DNA of 63,472 bases, filler included, from Stramenopiles sp. TOSAG23-2 (lineage: Eukaryota), in NCBI GenBank assembly GCA_900128395.1. It is 18 parts of 18 records of this genome, joined end to end, with 100 filler letters (N's around TTAATTAATTAA, not from the genome) between each part and the next. Parts side by side here need not be neighbours in the genome. Positions count along the whole stretch, not along the records: positions 18,442 to 22,026 come from LT651162.1; 17 more parts are not named here. One strand, 5' to 3'. Shown here piece after piece: positions 4,417-22,279 of this stretch (position 1 is its first letter; every line of letters starts with the position of its first letter). Below the pieces are notes generated by a model. The model worked only from the letters and a program-made list of their open reading frames with translations, ran no database searches and had not been told where the DNA came from. The translations under genes were made by a program, and so were the position numbers.

Positions 4417-6558
4417 TTAATCTACTTCTTCCATTTTGGAATCATCTTCATCGTCATCATCACCATCCAATTCTGGTAAATCATCGATGTCATCATCCTC
4501 ATCATCATCATCACCTGCATCATCGTCATCAACACCTAAACCAAGTTTGATCAATCGATGGATACGGCTTGCAAATGTTGTTGGTTCGTCTAACGAGAAA
4601 CCACTTGTTAAAAGACTTGTATCGTACAACAACCAGATTAAATCTTTCACGGTTTTATCGGATTGATCAGCTTCGGCTTTTTCGCGTAAATTTTTAATAA
4701 TAGCATGGTTTGGATTGACTTCCATGGTTTTCTTACTGGACATGTATCCTTGCATGGAGCTATCACGAAGTGCTTGAGCCTTCATGATACGTTCCATATT
4801 TGCAGTCCATCCATATTCTCCAGTAACAAGAACACATGGTGAATCAACGATACGGTTGGATACTTGAACTTTCTCAACTTTGTCATCTAAAACTTCTTTC
4901 ATCAATTTGCACAAACCTTCCGTCTTTGCTTTTTCCTCTTCGAATGCTTTTTTCTCATCTTCGGTTTCATCCAAGTTCAAACCTTCTTTGCTTGCGCATA
5001 AAAGTTTTTTACCATCGTATTCTTTCAATTGCTGTACGCAATATTCATCAATTGGGTCAACCATGTAAAGAACTTCAAAACCTTTTTTCTTCAATTTTTC
5101 CAAGAATGGGGAACTTTCAACGGCTTTTTTGCTTTCACCGGTGATGTAATAAATACCTGGTTGGTTCTCTTTCATTCTACCGACGTATTCTTTCAATGAA
5201 GTAAGATCGTCACCAGATTTGCTGGAGTTGTAACGTAACAATTCAGACAATTTGCTTCTGTTTGTGCTGTCTTCATGTACACCCAATTTTAAATTTTTGC
5301 TAAATGCTTCGTAGAACTTTTTGTAATCATCCTTATCCTCAGCAATATCGTTCATCAATTCAATACTTTTTTTGACTAAATTTTTCTTGATAACGCGCAA
5401 AATTTTATTTTGTTGAAGGGTCTCACGGGAAATGTTCAATGGTAAATCTTCACTATCAACAATACCTTTCACGAATGACAACCATTCTGGCATCAAGTCT
5501 TCGCAATTGTCCATGATAAATACACGACGTACATATAAACGAATGTTGTTTTGCTTTTTGCCTTTGCCTTCAAACATATCGAATGGTGCACGTTTTGGTG
5601 CAAACAACATAGCACGGAATTCCAATTGGCCTTCAACACTGAAATGTTTCACTTTCAAATGTTCTTCCCAATCGTTTGTCAATGCTTTGTAAAATGCAGC
5701 GTATTCTTCATGGGAGATATCTTTTGGTTTTCTCATCCACAATGGCTTTTGTTTGTTCATGGTTTCCCATTCATGTTTGACCTCTTTAATTTTTTTCGTT
5801 TTCTTTTCCTTCTTTTTACCTTCATCTTTTTCAACTTCTTCAACTTTTGGTTTATCATCACCATCTTCATCATCTTCATCATCATCATCGTCTTCATCAT
5901 CGGTAACTTCTTTCTCTTCGGTTTTTTCAACCCACAATTCAATTGGGAAACCAATGAATTCACTGTGTTTCTTTACCAAATCTTTCAAGCGTCTTTCTTC
6001 CAAATATTCTTGTTGGTCTTCTTTCAAATGCAACGTAATACTGGTACCACGTCCAATTTCTTTACCTTCATCTTTCACGATAGTGAAACTACCACCAGCA
6101 CTGGATTCCCATCGGTATTGCTCATCGTCGTTATGTTTGGAAACAACAACAACTTTCTCCGCTACTAAATATGCAGAGTAGAAACCTACACCGAATTGAC
6201 CAATCATACTGATATCAGCACCTGCAGATAAAGCCTCCATAAAAGCTTTAGTACCAGATTTTGCGATGGTACCTAAGTTGTTGATCAAGTCCGTTTTCGT
6301 CATACCAATACCACTATCTTGGATAGTCAAGGTATTGTTTGCTTTGTCTGGGATCAATTTGATGTTCAATTCTGGTGCACTTTTCAATGCATCTGCATCA
6401 GTTAATGATTCGTAACGAATTTTATCTAACGCATCAGAACTATTTGATATTAACTCTCGTAAGAAGATTTCTTTGTTAGAATAAAAGGTATTAATGATAA
6501 GACTCATTAACTGAGAGATATCAGCGGAGAATGCGAATGTTTCGGTTTCTTCAGCCAT
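4417..6558 (-). CDS. HSP90: Cytosolic heat shock protein 90
   Basis: [34 protein letters not shown], acidic linker and C-terminal MEEVD. Intronless, 713 aa. Confidence 0.99.
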
Positions 6559-7513
6559 TTTTGTTTTTCAAACTTGTTTTGTGATTGTATATATGTATAA
6601 AAAAAAAATTAAAGTACGATTCTGTTTCTTTTATCTTTTCTGTTTCTTTGTTTCTTTGTTCCTTTGTTGTAGTGTGGTGTGTGTAGGTACATATGATAGA
6701 CATATCTTATATATTTGTTTTTTTTGTTTTCAAAATTGGTGGTGTGTTTATGTTAATTTTTAGTACGATTCTGTTTCTTTTATCTTTTCTGTTTCTTTGT
6801 TTCTTTGTTCCTTTGTTGTAGTGTGGTGTGTGTAGGTACATATGATAGACATATCTTATATATTTGTTTTTTTTGTTTTCAAAATTGGTGGTGTGTTTAT
6901 GTTAATTTTTGCGATGTGTTCCTGGTGTTCCAGTAAAGTCAAAATGTTGGTTTACACCTGGCATAGGAATACCATTGAGGCGCAATGAACTCGCCCGCTT
7001 CGAGAAGAATGCAGTTCCTCTGATAATTGTGTGGTAATTGTGTGGTCCTAGCTCTTCGCTTTTTGCAAATTATGGTGGTATTGGACCATTAAAACTACTT
7101 TATTTCCCTTATTATTGTATTAATACTGTACCAGGTATAATAGCCGCCTAATAATATCACAATGAACAACATTTATCGGAAAAACGCATTGTAGCTGGCG
7201 GCTGGGCATGCTGGGCCTGGCTGGCTGGCCGGGCTGGGCTGGCCCAGCTGGCGGGCTGGTGGCTGGCCCAGGGCTGGTGNNNNNNNNNNNNNNNNNNNNN
7301 NNNNNNNNNNNNNNNNNNNNNNNTTAATTAATTAANNNNNNNNNNNNNNNNNNNNNNNNNNNNNNNNNNNNNNNNNNNNATAGCGCCTCTAGAGGAGTCA
7401 GTCGTGGTAGTAACCAAGGCGGTGGCTTTCTCATGAGACCAAATACATCATCGACAAACCGTTCTCATCGATAAAGAAGAGGGTGGATGGTGTGAGAAAT
7501 AATATATAAAATA

Positions 7514-7652
7514 ATAATTTTTTGAGATTATTGTTATTTATAATATATTTTCCTATATAAGTTATACTAGACACTACCAAGGCATATTTACCTTCTATAA
7601 TTTTATTATGACCTTTTATAGGATACTTTATGTACTTATGAAACATATATAC
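7514..7652 (+). repeat. Direct repeat copy 1 (~140 bp), upstream of the MACPF gene
   Basis: Near-identical to 10587-10735. Confidence 0.9.
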
Positions 7653-8533: not shown

Positions 8534-10195
8534 ATGTTATTTCGTATGATGTTATCGGTCATGTGTTTCGTCACATTGTTACCTTTACTAACTTCAACAA
8601 ACTTGGAACCTGCTCCTGATGCCTCATGTACCAACCTTCCAGAATGGATGTCTTTTGCATCTGCTGGGGTTGATATCACTACGTTCGATCCGTTATCCAC
8701 GACACCTGATTGGAAACGACAGATTGTTACTTTTACTTGCGCGAAGAAGAATACGTTCAACGATGAATATACAAACATAAGATATGATCAACCTGATCAG
8801 CTTGACAGTGTTCTTCCCAATGCAGGTAGCGTCCTTGCTGCTACCCAATTCCATGCCGACACAAGCGTGGGATGGGCCGAATCAATGGGTGCATATTTCA
8901 CTGCAGGTGCAGATGCTTTGATGGCAGCGTTCAGTTCTACGGAGAGCTTTCACGAGGCAGCAGCCGCACAATTTAATGGGAGCACTACAGCAGGTGTTGC
9001 ATTTTCTACCTTTAGCTCTTACAAAGTGCAGACAGTTGTACCAAGTGTATTTGACATCTCCGAAGAGGCAACTTCCACATACAATGCCTTGTTTGGTGAC
9101 AACTTCAAGTTTGGTCTATCAACTGTTGCTTTGTATAATGAGTTTATTAAATATTTTGGAACTCATTTCTTGGCGAAGCTTGAATTGGGAGCATTTGTGG
9201 TAATGGAGTTTTTTACTGACCGTGTTGAAGAGGCAGCTGAGTCGAAGGCAGATTTTTCTGCCAATGTCGATGCTAGCTTTCTCGGGCTAGTTGCTGCTGC
9301 TGGGGGTGGTTCTGTGGGTGAAAACGCAAGCCAGTCGTTCAAAGAGCATACAAAAATTAGCTCTCTTAAGACGCTTGGGGGGTATGGCCAGCCTACTCCC
9401 GCTACATGGGGAGCTTGGACAAAATCCGTTCCAATAGCCCCCCATGTTAATGGCGCGACATTGCAACCTATTTACACCCTGTTTCCAAATCAGAGCAAAG
9501 CCGATAACATGAAAGCAGCTGTTGCGAACCACTACAACAAAGCCATGCTAAATAACAATATTATACCTAGTCTAGAAGCAGTGATAATTCATGATGCATA
9601 CGTATCGAAGGATGAAGCTTGCTCGACTTCTGACTGCCCACTGGTAATTCCGGCAAGCTGTACAGCAGGTTACGACCCAAATACAGGATGTTCAGGTCTA
9701 ATGCCAAGTGGATGCAAGTATAGTACAAGTGGAAAAAGCAAATTACGCCATATTGTACCACGTTTGTATACACCTGGAGGTAGCGTTGGTGATTGTCAGT
9801 GCACACCAAAGGTTAGTGCTTTTTGCCTTGTTGAGAAGGAACCCCAACCAATGCCTGCTAACGTTACAGCAGCTCAGAAAAAGGCCATTGCAACTGCGAA
9901 ACATCTTCTCGCCATGGCAGTCGGTATGTCACTTTTGCCAATTCCGAAACCTGCTACTATGGTAGAATTGGTGGCCAACTGGACATCCCTTATTAAAAAG
10001 GTAACTTCTACGCCGGTACGCGAATCTTCGTGTGAGGTTGTCCACATAGGGCAATCATCGTGTTGTTGCGAGTGTTGTAGCGCCTCATGCTCGGCGCCTC
10101 TCGGACCAGATCCAATTTTCGGTTGTTTTGGTGCTAGTGGCCCCGTATCAAAAAGGCAAGGATGGATTCAATATCCAAGCGCTCTTGTAAATTGA
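8534..10195 (+). CDS. Secreted MAC/perforin (MACPF) domain protein with Cys-rich C-terminus
   Basis: N-terminal signal peptide, GVDITT early motif, MACPF signature YNEFIKYFGTHFLAKLELGA, LGG...W.AW.KSV...P, and a Cys-rich tail (CCCECCSASC). Confidence 0.88.
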   Translation: MLFRMMLSVMCFVTLLPLLTSTNLEPAPDASCTNLPEWMSFASAGVDITTFDPLSTTPDWKRQIVTFTCAKKNTFNDEYTNIRYDQPDQLDSVLPNAGSVLAATQFHADTSVGWAESMGAYFTAGADALMAAFSSTESFHEAAAAQFNGSTTAGVAFSTFSSYKVQTVVPSVFDISEEATSTYNALFGDNFKFGLSTVALYNEFIKYFGTHFLAKLELGAFVVMEFFTDRVEEAAESKADFSANVDASFLGLVAAAGGGSVGENASQSFKEHTKISSLKTLGGYGQPTPATWGAWTKSVPIAPHVNGATLQPIYTLFPNQSKADNMKAAVANHYNKAMLNNNIIPSLEAVIIHDAYVSKDEACSTSDCPLVIPASCTAGYDPNTGCSGLMPSGCKYSTSGKSKLRHIVPRLYTPGGSVGDCQCTPKVSAFCLVEKEPQPMPANVTAAQKKAIATAKHLLAMAVGMSLLPIPKPATMVELVANWTSLIKKVTSTPVRESSCEVVHIGQSSCCCECCSASCSAPLGPDPIFGCFGASGPVSKRQGWIQYPSALVN

Positions 10196-12150: not shown

Positions 12151-14191
12151 TCACATTTTACTATTTTTTGGCCATTCATCATTATTCAACATAGTATTTT
12201 CCATCAAATCTTTAAACTGTTTCACTGTCAATTTTGCATCGCCACCTCTTTCTGGTGTCATTCGCTGCACCGTAAAATGTTGTTCTCTATCTAATGCTTC
12301 ATTTACCAAGTGGTTACTAATCGCAGCGCGATTAATTAACGCCTTTGACAATTGTATTGCTTCTGGTTTAAAAGAGGATAATGTTTCTGCCATATCTAAT
12401 GCTTCAATTAAAAACATATCATGTGAATAAACTTCTGTAACCAAATTTAATCGTAATGCATCATCGGAGGACATCCATTTTCCTGTTAGCAAATATTTTT
12501 TTGCTATCATTGCATTAGTTTCATTTGCAAAACGAAAGGAAGAAGACAATTCAGGGGCTGTGGAATGTAGCGCATGAAAAGTTATATGTGTTAGAGGGTG
12601 TATATCTTTTTTGGGTTTAGGGAAAAAATAGAATTTACGTACTAATACCTAATTTACTAAATGGCCACATAAATCGCCCATTTTCACTACAATATATTAA
12701 ATCGCTGAAGAACAGGCTATAATTTGCTCCACCTCCAACAGCTAAGCCGTTAACAGCACAAATAATAGGCTTCCTTGCCATTAAAAAATCGAGCACAGTT
12801 GCACGTAATCCCCATGGACGAGACAAAGGATCAGGCATTTTACGCCGCCAAACAGAACTATTACCATTGCCTAGATTTTCTTCTCTTGTTTTAACATCCA
12901 AAAATTCCAACGCTTTTTTTGGCACAAACATTTGCTTCCCACCTTTTAAATCTGCCCCAGAACAAAATGCACGACCCGATCCTGTCCATACAATGCATTT
13001 GATATGATCGTTACGTTCGCAATATGCTAAACATAACCGAAGCTCTGCGACTAAATTGCCAGACATTGCATTCAAATTATTAGGAGAATCAAGAGTGATT
13101 AAAGCAACCCCATCACGTGCCATACGAAATCTTACATCATGTAACGTATAATCTGCTGTAATAATATTTGCATGGTCATTATCATCAAAATATTGTATTG
13201 TAATATGATGATCATTACTCAAGAACAAATCAAGAATAGTATTTGGTATAGCTTCTTCGTCATTTGTAATTGGTAACACTACATTGGCAAATTGTTTTGT
13301 TTCATTATCAGCATTTTTTGGACAAAAAGATTTACCAGCCCATTTTAACATACGATTATCATTTCCACCATCTCCAAAAGCAGCAACATTTTCTTTCTCC
13401 AAATTCATTTGTTCACATACCCATTGTAATGCACCTTGCTTATTGCTTTCTGGCGCTTCAAAAACGATGGTTGAAGTTACTGGGGCAAATATATTATTAT
13501 CGACATTCGAATTGTTTGAATTAATAGCCAATCGCATGCCATAATCGGATGGCAAAAGTGTAAAAGATTCATCCATTAACGGTACGACTTCTTCTTGCAA
13601 CGTTTCCCCTTCCATACCAGGGACAAACATTAAAGCCATGAAACTTTGTTCCAACGTTTCCGGTTTTAAATTAAATAACTCTTCTGGTTTTTCCATTGTT
13701 ACACTTTCAATATTTTCACGAATTGACGCTATTTGTTTTTCATATTCTTCCATCGTCATCGTTTGCAGGCACATATCTCGATAAAATCCTTCGAAGTTTG
13801 GAGACGCATAACTTCTACGATGTTTTCCAGATAATGTTGTTAAAGCTAAACCTAAAGTTGGAAACTTCTTTCTTATCATTGGCAATATGCGTTGTAATTC
13901 TCTGGATGGTCTTAATCGTTCCCTAACTTTTATTCCATTTCTTAACACTATATCTCCATCGCTGCAAATATTATATCCACTATCACAACCTAATTTTTTT
14001 GCAATGGGCATGACAACTTCCGGTGGATTACCAGTAGCAATCATAAAGGTACCACCTGCTGACTGATATGCTTGCACAGCATTTATCGCAGTTTTACTTA
14101 ATGTTCCATATCCAGCATTACCATCACTGTGTAATAAGGTTCCATCAAGATCACATGCTACTAATGATGGAAAAAAAGTAGAAGCTTCCAT
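12151..14191 (-). CDS. Fusion of a Cof-type HAD hydrolase and an enoyl-CoA hydratase/isomerase (crotonase). Two exons, intron 12558-12642
   Basis: HAD motifs ACDLDGTLL, IATG, K..AL and FGDGGND. Crotonase motifs GRAFCSGADL and AVNGLAVGGG. An 85-nt intron (GTACGT...CTAAC...CACAG) joins the two ORFs to give KLGITPELSSSF. Confidence 0.9.
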
Positions 14192-18341: not shown

Positions 18342-18501
18342 NNNNNNNNNNNNNNNNNNNNNNNNNNNNNNNNNNNNNNNNNNNNTTAATTAATTAANNN
18401 NNNNNNNNNNNNNNNNNNNNNNNNNNNNNNNNNNNNNNNNNAATGCTGTTCCCCTATATGCCAAATCGGCACCTTTGATCTTTTCAGCTGTCATATGTAA
18501 T

Positions 18502-20112
18502 TTAATTTGTGTATTTATTGTATATTATTTTATTTTTTTTATTTTGTTGTTTCTTCCATACTTTATGTAACTCGTTAGCTGTTTTAGGAGACACCTCTAC
18601 ATCATCCCACACATGGTCATCATATTTGTCTCCCAATAATTTTTTAAAATGCTCTTCATCAAATTCAATAACATATACCTTCTTTCCTTTTTGATTAATA
18701 TTATCTTGAATAATTGTTCCTCTAATATATTTTTTATACGTATCAGATTCTTTATTTTGGTCATACCATAAAATCTTTTTATCAATCAACGAGTTAGTCT
18801 TTCTCTTTTTTTTCTTTCCCTTGCTCTTTTTTCGCTCGGCATTTCTTTTCTTACCAGTAGTTGTAGTAGTAGTAGTAGTAGTAGTAGTCGTTGTTGTTGA
18901 ACTAGATGAATTATTAACGGTAATACCTTTCTCTCCCTCAATTTCTTCTTCTTCATCATCATCGTTTCCGCTGCTATATTCTTCTCCAGTGGCTTCTCGG
19001 TATTTTTGCTTTAAAAATTTAATCTCGTCTTTAATGTAATTTCCTGATAACGCTAAGTCCGTAAAAAAACCTGACATACCAGTTCGAAATAAATCTTGCA
19101 TAACCAATAGGCTCTGTTTATCATTTTCATTAAAAGCATTGTATTCAATAGCTTTATCCATTTTTTTTTCTGAAATGATGTTATAACGATTGCTTTTAAC
19201 CCATGTAAGCAACGGGTCTGTATCCTTTTCCTCACAAACCAACAGTTTATTTACCAAATTATTCAGTTTGGACAAGCTATCTTTTTCTTCTTCCGTAATC
19301 ATATTATCAGCCACGCTTTTTTCCAACATTTTTAACACAGTTGTATTATCTTTGTTTTTCTCATACCACGTTCGTAACGGATCTGGATTATCACTATTAA
19401 TTTTATTCTCTCTCTTTAATTGCTCTAATTTTCTTTCACAATAAGTTGCATAAGCCTCTTCGACTAGCACTTGTCGATTTTGTCTGGCTTCCTCTTGAAA
19501 TATAAACTGTTCGACTAGTTGCGTTAATCGATAGCAATTAGCATCTCTGTCTTTACTATGCTTATTTATAGATAAGTTTTGTTTTAGATCCATAGCGTTT
19601 CTCACAATCCCTAATTTTTTCCTGGCTTTTCTACCCGCTTTCTTTGCCATTGCATCCTCCTGATTATACCAACGACTTCGATAATCAATGTTTAATTTGT
19701 TAAGAACACCGCTATCTTTTAAGAATGTTAATTCACGGTCTAATACTGTAGTTGTCACTTCAAATCGATTAGATCGTCCTTTGTTCTTTTTTTTTTTTCT
19801 TCCTACTTTTTTCTTTGTTTTTTCTTTGTTTTGAAGATCTACAGTGTTACTACTGCTGCTAGAACTGCTTGAGCTGTTATTGTTCCTGTTGAAACTATTA
19901 CCTGTTGTATTTACATCTAAATACGGGTTAAAATCATTAAGAAGTTGATTGACTTGTGGTCTAGCTTTTTTAACATAATTTTGCAAACTATTTCTGACTG
20001 CTTGTTGATCCCTTTCTGGATTATTTGTCATAGACACCAGATAATTATTATTATTTGTTTGATCTGTGGTGTTATTCGAACCACCTTCACTTGAGCTACT
20101 GCTTGACAACAT
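18502..20112 (-). CDS. Hypothetical protein with low-complexity tracts and a possible C-terminal Tudor/SH3-like domain
   Basis: 536-aa ORF with poly-S/N/T tracts and basic NLS-like runs. The C-terminal LIDKKILWY...YIRGTI...VYVIEFDE resembles a Tudor-like barrel (weak). Confidence 0.6.
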   Translation of the reverse strand: MLSSSSSSEGGSNNTTDQTNNNNYLVSMTNNPERDQQAVRNSLQNYVKKARPQVNQLLNDFNPYLDVNTTGNSFNRNNNSSSSSSSSSNTVDLQNKEKTKKKVGRKKKKNKGRSNRFEVTTTVLDRELTFLKDSGVLNKLNIDYRSRWYNQEDAMAKKAGRKARKKLGIVRNAMDLKQNLSINKHSKDRDANCYRLTQLVEQFIFQEEARQNRQVLVEEAYATYCERKLEQLKRENKINSDNPDPLRTWYEKNKDNTTVLKMLEKSVADNMITEEEKDSLSKLNNLVNKLLVCEEKDTDPLLTWVKSNRYNIISEKKMDKAIEYNAFNENDKQSLLVMQDLFRTGMSGFFTDLALSGNYIKDEIKFLKQKYREATGEEYSSGNDDDEEEEIEGEKGITVNNSSSSTTTTTTTTTTTTTTGKKRNAERKKSKGKKKKRKTNSLIDKKILWYDQNKESDTYKKYIRGTIIQDNINQKGKKVYVIEFDEEHFKKLLGDKYDDHVWDDVEVSPKTANELHKVWKKQQNKKNKIIYNKYTN

Positions 20113-20297
20113 TTTGTTAGATACTGTTTATTGTATGTTATATTATTAGTAATATTCTTGAATAAGTATTGATATTGTTGCATAAAATTGTTGAATATGT
20201 ATATGTATATATAGATCTATATATGTATATATGTTATATATATTTGTTTTTATTAATACTTAGTGTATATATATATATTATGTATTAATTCATTTCT

Positions 20298-20686
20298 TTG
20301 GATAGAAACTATATTTTATCTGAATGCTATGTGTATGCTAATTTTGACAGTTTATTCAGATAGAAATTAGTAAAAGTCCGTATGCTATTTATATGGTAAT
20401 CAGGAGAACCTCGTAGATAAATATATTTTAGTCCGAATGTGTGGTGTACCTACAACTGACAATTTTCGGATAGAAATACTATTAGGTCCGAAGAGCACTG
20501 TAGTATTATTAAGGTAACAATAGTCTGTTGTCGGATAGAAATATATTTTAGTCCGTTAATGGTTTTGGAAACAATTAAGGTAAAATATTGTGTTGTCGGA
20601 TAGAAATATAATTTGGTCCGACAGTGGTATATTAGATGTTAAGGTAAAAATATTGTATCGTCGGATAGAAATATATTTTGGTCCGA
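20298..20686. repeat. Interspaced array of seven ~25-bp imperfect palindromic repeats (consensus TCGGATAGAAATATATTTTRGTCCGA)
   Basis: Copies start at 20298, 20356, 20411, 20466, 20531, 20596 and 20661 (periods 58, 55, 55, 65, 65, 65). Intervening sequences differ from one another. Confidence 0.9.
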
Positions 20687-20941
20687 ATATATTAGTCTTT
20701 TGCATTTTTTTGCCTTATAGCCAATAGTTGTCACGCCTTTTGATATGTTAATTGATGTTAGGTTTTTGCAAGCATTGAATGCAAAGTAACCAATGGAAGT
20801 TAGCCCATTTGGTAATTTGATTGATGTCAAATTTGTGCAACCATAGAATGCATCATTAGCAATAGTTGTTACGCCTTTTGATATGTTAATTGATATCAGA
20901 TTGTTGCAATCACGAAATGCCTCATCACCTATAGTAATCAT
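20639..20941 (-). pseudogene. BspA-type (LRR_5) leucine-rich repeat fragment
   Basis: TIGDEAFRDCNNLISINI, TTIANDAFYGCTNLTSIKLP and TSIGYFAFNACKNLTSINI. The repeats break off at GYKA and the frame runs into the repeat array. Confidence 0.7.
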
Positions 20942-21656
20942 TACTTCTCAACGATTCTTTTTGTTGATTTACAATTGGTAATATAGTGCCTTTGCATCTC
21001 AAACCAGACCAGAACTTGGATAATGAGTTGTCTTCTTTGGTATAGATTAACCAGTTGATAAACGTTTTCTTGTGTTTGTCACTTTTGGATAGATAGAAGT
21101 TCTTCATTGCTGTCAATACTTCAGCAGTATAATCGCAGCTTTTAATATGAATCAAGATGGCAATAAATTCATCAACCGTATACACAACAATAGTTCTTGT
21201 CGTAATACCTTGATGTTTACAAATTCCTTTGATTTCTGCATTCATTGCTCTGTGTGCTGGCGAATTATGTGCTATCTTTAATGCGCGTGCTGCTTTACGT
21301 ATTAATTCCTTTTCGAATTCATTGTAATTGAAAGCAGATACCCAAGTCTTTCCATCTTTCACATAATAAACTGCTTTCAGTTCTGATCGTTTCGTTGCGT
21401 CAACGATTTGAACACTTTCATATTGTGTTGTTTCTCTTTGCAACGATGCTTTGTCGTACGTTTTTTGATTTCCTATTAATCCAAACATATTTTGTTTTGT
21501 TGCTTTGTGGCGTGCTTCGTATTGTGGTTCGTTATGTATTGTTCTTTTATCTCTGTTCATATATATATATGTTAGGTTGTTGCATTCTCTTTTGGGTTGT
21601 GTGCGTACTTTTTTCGCAGGTGTATTTGTATAGTAACTATCGTGATATAAAGCCAT
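20925..21656 (-). CDS. Hypothetical protein (243 aa), no family recognised
   Basis: Long ATG-started ORF with protein-like composition. Its 3' end overlaps the BspA fragment. Confidence 0.55.
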   Translation of the reverse strand: MALYHDSYYTNTPAKKVRTQPKRECNNLTYIYMNRDKRTIHNEPQYEARHKATKQNMFGLIGNQKTYDKASLQRETTQYESVQIVDATKRSELKAVYYVKDGKTWVSAFNYNEFEKELIRKAARALKIAHNSPAHRAMNAEIKGICKHQGITTRTIVVYTVDEFIAILIHIKSCDYTAEVLTAMKNFYLSKSDKHKKTFINWLIYTKEDNSLSKFWSGLRCKGTILPIVNQQKESLRSNDYYR

Positions 21657-22279
21657 TTTGTTTTCGCGGTTTTGTTATTAGTGTTATTTCATGGTAAGAA
21701 TATTCTACAAATATTCTGATTGTAACAGCATATACACAGCACTCTCAAAACCGTTAGTGGTATTTATATGCTATTAGGAACGAATACTTTGAAAATTGGC
21801 ATTTTTCCAGGTGTCTATTGACAATTCCAGCTCGAATCCACTATTTTGAGGCCTTGTTTAAGGATTTTAGCTGAAAAAGTTCGATGAGTTTGATTTTGGC
21901 GTTGGGAGTTTTCGGTAAAGTAGAGCCCATGCTATGTAGTGCTAATTCCAACTTTACGGCGAACTTTGCGGCTATTTTTTTTAGGAATGGTCAAAACCGC
22001 CTTCTATTCCCCTGGTAGCCGAAAAANNNNNNNNNNNNNNNNNNNNNNNNNNNNNNNNNNNNNNNNNNNNTTAATTAATTAANNNNNNNNNNNNNNNNNN
22101 NNNNNNNNNNNNNNNNNNNNNNNNNNGTTTCTTGTGTGTGTGTGTGTGTGTTTGTGTGTGTTTGTCTAATTACAGTAGATATATTCATACACGTGTGATA
22201 GAGAACAAGTCCGTAAAAGATATAAAACAGAAGAATATCATTAGAAGAACAATTCCAATAGTTTTGTTTTAAAAAGATC

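Follow-up and report, generated by a model that had tools for sequence, protein, structure and literature searches.

At the canonical 3' end of a Helitron, a hairpin and the motif CTAG stand before a target T, and bypass of this end captures the DNA that lies downstream (PMC4778049). In Helraiser, a change in the hairpin loop abolished function, a swap of the stem did not, and the 3' end was bypassed in about 12% of events (PMC4778049). The domain DUF6570 has been described as a marker of HLE2 elements (PMC11417382). Such sources already report Helitron ends, multiple termini and internal tandem repeats; the open-access literature, mostly titles and abstracts without supplements, yielded nothing on tandem palindromes that form the 3' end of a Helitron, or on the element family considered here. 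Helitron-like elements have a 5' TC (or TT) end and insert between A and T with no duplication, HLE1-type elements have a palindrome, CTRR and a target T at their 3' end, and HLE2 elements have terminal inverted repeats that are short and asymmetric. CRISPR arrays consist of short palindromic repeats at regular intervals and show polar decay, and TIGR-Tas systems have an adjacent Tas protein with a Nop domain.

The locus compared here with these systems is an array of palindromes at 20298-20686 of a window of 63,472 nucleotides, which is the whole stretch of DNA analysed and consists of concatenated contigs from the assembly of Stramenopiles sp. TOSAG23-2 (32.8 Mb, AT-rich, eukaryotic). Our data suggest that the array is the reiterated 3'-subterminal palindrome of a Helitron family, left in the window as a rearranged, non-autonomous and decaying remnant, and we put the probability of this reading at about 0.72.

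The array and its counterpart on a Helitron contig

The array holds seven copies of a 26-bp imperfect palindrome on the minus strand, with periods of 58, 55, 55, 65, 65 and 65 bp. When up to three mismatches to the consensus were allowed, four copies were found, compared with a mean of 0.00 in 100 shuffles. Profile scores drop from right to left: copy 7 is the best and the first in the Helitron reading direction (20661-20686, 42.2 bits), followed by copy 6 (20596-20621, 40.6 bits), copy 5 (20531-20556, 38.8 bits), copy 4 (20466-20491, 37.5 bits), the decayed copies 3 (20411-20436, 30.0 bits) and 2 (20356-20381, 22.7 bits), and the most decayed, copy 1 (20298-20323, 18.9 bits). A preliminary description of this DNA had reported these seven copies, with a period of 65 bp among the last four and 55-58 bp before them, as well as their leftward decay, and both observations hold. 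All four changes at two CpGs are CpG transitions, yet the ORFs of the contig have CpG observed/expected ratios of 0.9-1.1, and we do not claim that methylation drove the decay.

The three right-hand spacers (20492-20530, 20557-20595 and 20622-20660, minus strand) measure 39 nt rather than the 40 nt first given. They have in common a block of about 20 nt, TTAAGGTAA (pairwise shuffle p 0.002 or lower), and their distal parts of 18-19 nt show no significant alignment with each other (p 0.27-0.84), which bears out the earlier picture of a variable part of about 18 nt alternating with a semi-conserved block. The left spacers are related among themselves (spacers 1 and 2, p 0.006; spacers 1 and 3, p 0.022). 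The contig that carries the array is 3585 bp long (18442-22026 of the window), and its DNA is present in many marine metagenomes. It encodes no transposase, and CTAG, which marks the 3' end of HLE1-type Helitrons, follows none of the seven copies, including copy 1.

Searching the assembly and marine metagenomes for the repeat, as the preliminary description had proposed, located the array once in the assembly and at two stretches of the metagenome collection, both on JACLAD010011643.1, a contig of 14.4 kb that was analysed without its first 796 bases (L139; positions on it count along this stretch) and that also encodes a RepHel protein and a 512-aa relative of the 536-aa ORF beside the window array. 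L139 contains two arrays of three palindrome copies each, identical to one another at 142 of 150 nt. Some 300 bp downstream of the helicase stop comes the first array, with periods of 54 and 53 bp; the second lies 5.5 kb further on, and its CTAG-T forms the last bases of the contig. Both arrays end in palindrome-CA-CTAG-T, an HLE1-type 3' end with a spacing shorter than the canonical one, and a CTAGT no more than 12 nt away from a given point has a background of about 0.7%. Copy 7 of the window aligns with the copy that lies innermost in the L139 arrays. Among the independent period classes, 53/54, 55 and 65 bp fit whole helical turns and 58 bp does not, with too few classes for a test.

Upstream of the first array, one L139 ORF matches Helitron_like_N at E 2e-5, which does not reach the curated cut-off, and another matches PIF1 at E 4e-23; the PIF1-type helicase is C-terminal to the Rep, with a GT-AG intron-like stretch between the two ORFs. 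The HUH (HxH) motif and two tyrosines (YxxxY) are invariant in all seven aligned RepHel proteins, namely the L139 protein, the RepHel of the window genome and five database relatives. The RepHel of the window genome is 32-36% identical to that of L139, and its contig (C2348) ends before a terminus. DUF6570 is present in all five longer relatives of the L139 helicase and was not found in the proteins of L139 and C2348, each of which has a missing or interrupted N-terminus.

The four spacers of L139, each 27-28 nt long, are nearly identical, and most of their variation falls in the distal part. In the window, the spacers between copies 5 and 4 (W5-4) and 6 and 5 (W6-5) match them through the proximal block, which is homologous in the two loci (best p 0.007 and 0.0045, uncorrected, in 24 comparisons); the diverged distal 18-mers and the three left spacers of the window show no significant alignment with the L139 spacers (p 0.1-0.9). 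The 26-bp core differs by one to three changes between the window organism and L139, whose neighbouring proteins are 43% identical. These matches come from one independent element, whose two arrays duplicate each other. When 87 loci (262,666 bases, among them the RepHel contig of the window genome) were scanned with a profile, no further palindrome copy was found outside L139 and the window contig, and viral contigs contained no relatives of the L139 helicase. The L139 terminal motif with up to three mismatches occurs 46 times in the window genome, against 38 for the control, and none of the 30 matches inspected stands behind a palindrome array. Within the sequence covered, neither a 5' end of the element nor an empty site appeared.

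L139 resembles the canonical HLE1 right end of Helraiser in having a palindrome, CTAG and a target T downstream of a Rep-PIF1 gene, and the second end of L139, which lies beyond a stretch of cargo genes, is what read-through capture would predict; unlike Helraiser, L139 has three or more tandem palindromes instead of one, and the gap from its 26-bp AT-rich imperfect palindrome to CTAG is 2 nt instead of about 11 nt, whereas the window array differs from that end in having seven palindromes and no CTAG (PMC4778049). The two L139 ends, with a SET gene and the 512-aa protein between them, fit read-through capture past a 3' end. The CTAG 3' end and the extra ORFs, which include the SET gene and hypothetical proteins, recall the proto-Helentron of Phytophthora infestans and HLE2 elements, in which such an end goes with an HLE2-type transposase and whose accounts, in their accessible parts, describe no terminal palindrome array (PMC4067079; PMC11417382); the DUF6570 of the five longer helicase relatives is likewise a trait of HLE2 transposases (PMC11417382). 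Short repeated terminal modules, and ORFs inverted against the ends by nested insertion, are reported for FoHeli of Fusarium and for self-inserted Helitrons; unlike the 3' palindrome plus spacer seen here, the repeated modules in FoHeli are 5' termini of 31-85 nt (PMC5148889).

Several other features of these elements were observed. In the Rep of L139 (1-4941), an inserted polynucleotide kinase 3'-phosphatase domain (PNK3P, E 6e-20) separates the HUH motif from the catalytic tyrosines, and a host gene similar to this insert is present on contig C4926 of the window genome. Behind the SET gene, two short stretches from the 3' end of the helicase occur a second time (7491-7517 at 9841-9867, and 7593-7628 at 9867-9902), a sign of internal shuffling in L139. 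On C2348 (L151, 295-6840) Rep and PIF1 lie together in one 2182-aa frame, with a frame break upstream, and the 5' region has direct repeats of 141 bp and short hairpins. The window genome also has a dispersed repeat with TATCTATCTCACACTAGT on C1334, C1578, C1977, C2948, C4923 and C8538, together with variants; it was considered as a Helitron end of the palindrome family and rejected, as the shared sequence continues past TATCTATCTCACACTAGT.

Spacers, targets and the guide-RNA reading

The window array resembles a CRISPR array in that its right four copies are near-identical with a regular period of 65 bp and the whole decays in a polar manner. This repeat-spacer look had led to the proposal of a CRISPR-like array processed into small guide-like RNAs, and three distal 18-mers that are not significantly alike, together with a + strand RNA that is able to fold, agree with a CRISPR-like or TIGR-like array that supplies guides to a neighbouring protein. 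We nevertheless regard this reading as very improbable. Unlike the spacers of CRISPR arrays, those of L139 are homologous, near-identical duplicates and those of the window share the 20-nt block, and the context is that of a eukaryotic transposon with no cas genes and no targets for the spacers. The variable parts had been proposed as queries against viral and host sequence, and neither search gave a target beyond chance: within two mismatches the three 18-mers had 0, 8 and 5 non-self matches in their own genome, compared with 3, 5 and 2 for controls, none of them exact, and exact matches in viral contigs numbered 0, 0 and 1, with the four matches inspected not extending past the query.

Among the matches listed from two wild metagenomes (2013 and 2025), no new spacer or joint appeared in the array, in contigs, which drop rare variants. 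Of the contigs listed, those from one set of wild DNA (X4) match the array without differences over 20019-20400 and 20505-20756, and those from another (X6) differ from it by substitutions and one 15-nt deletion.

Neither Pfam nor PHROG gave any family for the flanking 536-aa and 243-aa ORFs, Cas, Nop and nuclease families included, and, in agreement with the preliminary description, no cas family was found among the 24 ORFs of the window; the same applies to the six ORFs of L139. The five Rfam matches all score far below the gathering scores. Prokaryote and viral collections contained no array of the palindrome. Matches to a single-copy pattern were put down to chance (two singletons in viral contigs; 106 stretches in prokaryote genomes, of which the 80 listed were each single), none of the 7 viral and 24 prokaryote stretches that matched a two-copy pattern holds an array of the palindrome, and OZ245871.1 from Obscuribacterales (L216, about 4900-5450) was discarded as an unrelated bacterial tandem repeat of 35-36 bp which has the left arm in common with the palindrome. 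The duplicated L139 spacers, the lack of targets, the want of any new spacer among the contigs listed from the two wild samples and the lack of covariation described below together speak against the guide-array proposal.

Recognition of the palindrome and the 536-aa gene

In order to address how the palindrome might be recognised, we considered its folding and its conservation. The right four copies fold better than all 200 shuffles, both as + strand RNA (z -4.3) and as - strand DNA (z -4.1), which is expected from repeated palindromes. Copies 4-7 form only weak hairpins as DNA (-2.7 to -4.4 kcal/mol), those of the opposite strand being slightly more stable. The preliminary description had proposed a + strand fold extended by G-U pairs; + strand folding of the right four copies stands, and the longer G-U stem exists on that strand alone, the proposed Helitron end being read on the minus strand. 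Covariation, a check also proposed there, was found in none of the eight hairpin pairs across 13 copies, and unpaired positions are conserved like paired ones (11-12 of 13 copies). The lack of covariation together with the conserved unpaired positions favours recognition by sequence, as would be the case for a RepHel acting on the displaced strand or for a dyad site.

By analogy with Helraiser, an intact element of this family would have three or more palindrome copies ahead of its CTAG end, and the RepHel, unwinding from the 5' end of the element, would meet the palindromes in turn, pause, and cut at CTAG|T. Each palindrome may be recognised by its sequence, whether in a weak hairpin of single-stranded DNA or in a dyad site, and several of them, possibly in helical phase, would give the RepHel several chances to stop, with occasional read-through beyond the last. 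New units would arise by tandem duplication of the palindrome plus spacer; if the palindrome is then held while the proximal part of the spacer drifts slowly and the distal part fast, the outcome would be the repeat-spacer look of the array, and the distal 18-mers of the window would have drifted rather than be foreign. In the window, such an end would be decaying from one side within a mosaic of gene fragments. As it is without a CTAG end, is inverted with respect to the 536-aa gene and lies on a contig without a transposase, we read it as a rearranged non-autonomous remnant, and it is probably inactive.

Tandem duplication alone could also produce such an array, and a neutral minisatellite that formed by chance near a Helitron end and was carried as cargo, its palindrome without a role, would account for the duplicated L139 spacers and for hairpin pairs without covariation; internal tandem repeats are often found in Helentron-type elements (PMC4067079). 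Such a repeat would not be expected to keep its 26-bp core with one to three changes between organisms whose neighbouring proteins are 43% identical while its spacers changed in length from 27-28 to 39 nt, and the last L139 copy abuts CTAG|T. We consider this explanation improbable.

The main rival to the Helitron-end reading is that the array, wherever it came from, now provides clustered sites to which the 536-aa protein or a host factor binds, be it an autoregulatory or anti-silencing target or an upstream enhancer of the 536-aa gene. This ORF (18502-20112, minus strand) has no assigned function. Its only full-length relative among 7998 candidates scored is the 512-aa L139 protein (43% identity), and a search at shorter lengths gave five fragments; viral contigs held no relatives. 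The suggestion that it and the 243-aa ORF on the other side of the array were orphans is thus incorrect, as both have relatives. The proposal that they might be partner proteins of the array fared differently for each: the 536-aa gene does co-occur with an array at one other locus, and the 243-aa ORF proved to be the front part of a broken recombinase-like gene that belongs to another element. Family and structure searches, also proposed earlier, gave little for the 536-aa protein, which matched nothing in Pfam, PHROG, PDB sequences or atlas features and whose structure model is unusable (pLDDT 38.8). Upstream of the ORF, a 66-nt AT-rich element (20213-20278) is 95% identical to a stretch upstream of the L139 homolog and is probably, to judge from this match, a promoter piece.

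Several observations are consistent with binding sites. The 536-aa gene family and the array occur together at both known loci, the L139 element carries a SET gene, and dyad symmetry without covariation fits a site in double-stranded DNA. Contigs from two polyA libraries cover the 536-aa ORF and stop, among the ends listed, at 20180 and 20187, with depth 0 across 20242-20721 where DNA runs continue; copy 1 starts about 110 bp upstream of these stops. As such libraries are without small RNAs and the evidence consists of contigs, it is at most a weak hint of transcription and not proof. A precedent is found in the VANC targets of VANDAL transposons, which form tandem repeats of non-coding motifs in a transposon with an accessory protein; unlike these targets, the present array is terminal and tied to CTAG|T, and DNA binding by the 536-aa protein is putative (PMC5735166).

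Other properties of the two loci are harder to reconcile with binding sites. The array is inverted relative to the 536-aa gene in the window compared with L139, and the distance from start codon to array is about 190 bp in the window and 1.6 kb in L139, so that orientation and distance both differ. In L139 the helicase precedes one of the arrays, and each of the two terminates precisely at CTAG|T. The copies closest to the gene in the window are the most decayed, a 15-nt deletion at 20658 in a wild variant removes an arm of copy 7, and the 536-aa protein offers neither a sequence match in Pfam, PHROG or PDB nor a usable model to connect it with DNA. We therefore judge a binding-site cluster unlikely. 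For the inverted 536-aa gene, nested insertion of the kind reported for self-inserted Helitrons could be the explanation (PMC5148889). A more specific proposal is that the 536/512-aa accessory gene product binds the phased palindromes, and that the two make up a regulatory or anti-silencing module, self-contained and specific for its sequence, at the end of the transposon in this protist Helitron group, beside the SET gene, kept and expressed without a transposase in the window organism; this we hold to be quite unlikely.

If the Helitron-end reading is right, a divergent group of protist RepHels uses a 3' end of several phased palindromes and not one hairpin. Such ends would offer a natural way to test whether the 3' signal is read by structure or by sequence and with one stop or several, and what sets the rate of read-through behind gene capture. 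A decaying Helitron end would also be able to mimic a CRISPR array, which is a warning for scans of eukaryotic bins.

The surrounding mosaic and a recombinase-like element

On the minus strand the contig reads, in order, the end of a multi-copy element, the 243-aa ORF, a BspA-type LRR_5 fragment, the array and the 536-aa ORF. The LRR fragment, which the preliminary description had missed, lies directly to the right of the array: a 100-aa ORF (20639-20941, minus strand; E 3e-23) with about three 69-bp repeats, a gene fragment that runs into the array. We considered the array as a frameshifted continuation of these repeats and dropped the idea after six-frame translation, the period being 65 and not 69 bp. 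The number of LRR repeats (20711-20936) varies in wild DNA, with a joint back 135 nt plus 3 letters in both DNA runs, which equals two 69-bp units.

The 243-aa ORF (20925-21656, minus strand) is an N-terminal piece, at 71% identity, of a 1054-aa tyrosine-recombinase-like gene found on two other contigs, C1394 and C1632. The homology stops at 20937, where the contigs of two wild DNA runs also depart from the window sequence. The end of the multi-copy element (21791-22026, minus strand) has 17 matches on 15 other contigs, and on C1394 it precedes the 1054-aa gene; copies of this element have asymmetric inverted repeats of 16 bp. The 1054-aa protein has 50 relatives at E 0.001 or better and no family match. 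In its model, the C-terminal half is similar to the topoisomerase IB / tyrosine recombinase fold (the top 12 of 50 matches, Z 5.9-7.1), and the model had no Foldseek match at E 0.001 or better in the pdb or viral sets. With all Z below 8, the resemblance is only suggestive of a very divergent tyrosine recombinase.

Tyrosine recombinases bind palindromes with 13-bp arms, as at loxP, and the broken front of this gene lies 250 bp from the array, which might then consist of binding or recombination sites of the enzyme. Beyond the fold resemblance little speaks for such sites, which we find hardly plausible: the 18-kb element on C1394, with the gene intact, has no palindrome copy, L139 has arrays yet no match to the 1054-aa gene, and the arms of the palindrome have no spacer between them. 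Apart from the question of the array, the 18-kb element is possibly the more novel of the two. Bounded by asymmetric inverted repeats and headed by the 1054-aa gene, it also encodes a DUF5906 primase-helicase, a PHD-finger protein and a SWIM protein, a layout that we take to resemble Starship-like or PLV/transpoviron-like elements; window positions 20937-22026 are a fragment of it, and short non-autonomous copies share its ends.

Elsewhere in the window, a 347-aa fragment of a DUF5906/VapE-like primase-helicase (57607-58650, minus strand) hints at another virus-like or mobile element. A 553-aa ORF with a MACPF domain (8534-10195, plus strand) has a GC content above that of its surroundings, and at 12635-14191 (minus strand) a HAD hydrolase is fused with an enoyl-CoA hydratase domain.
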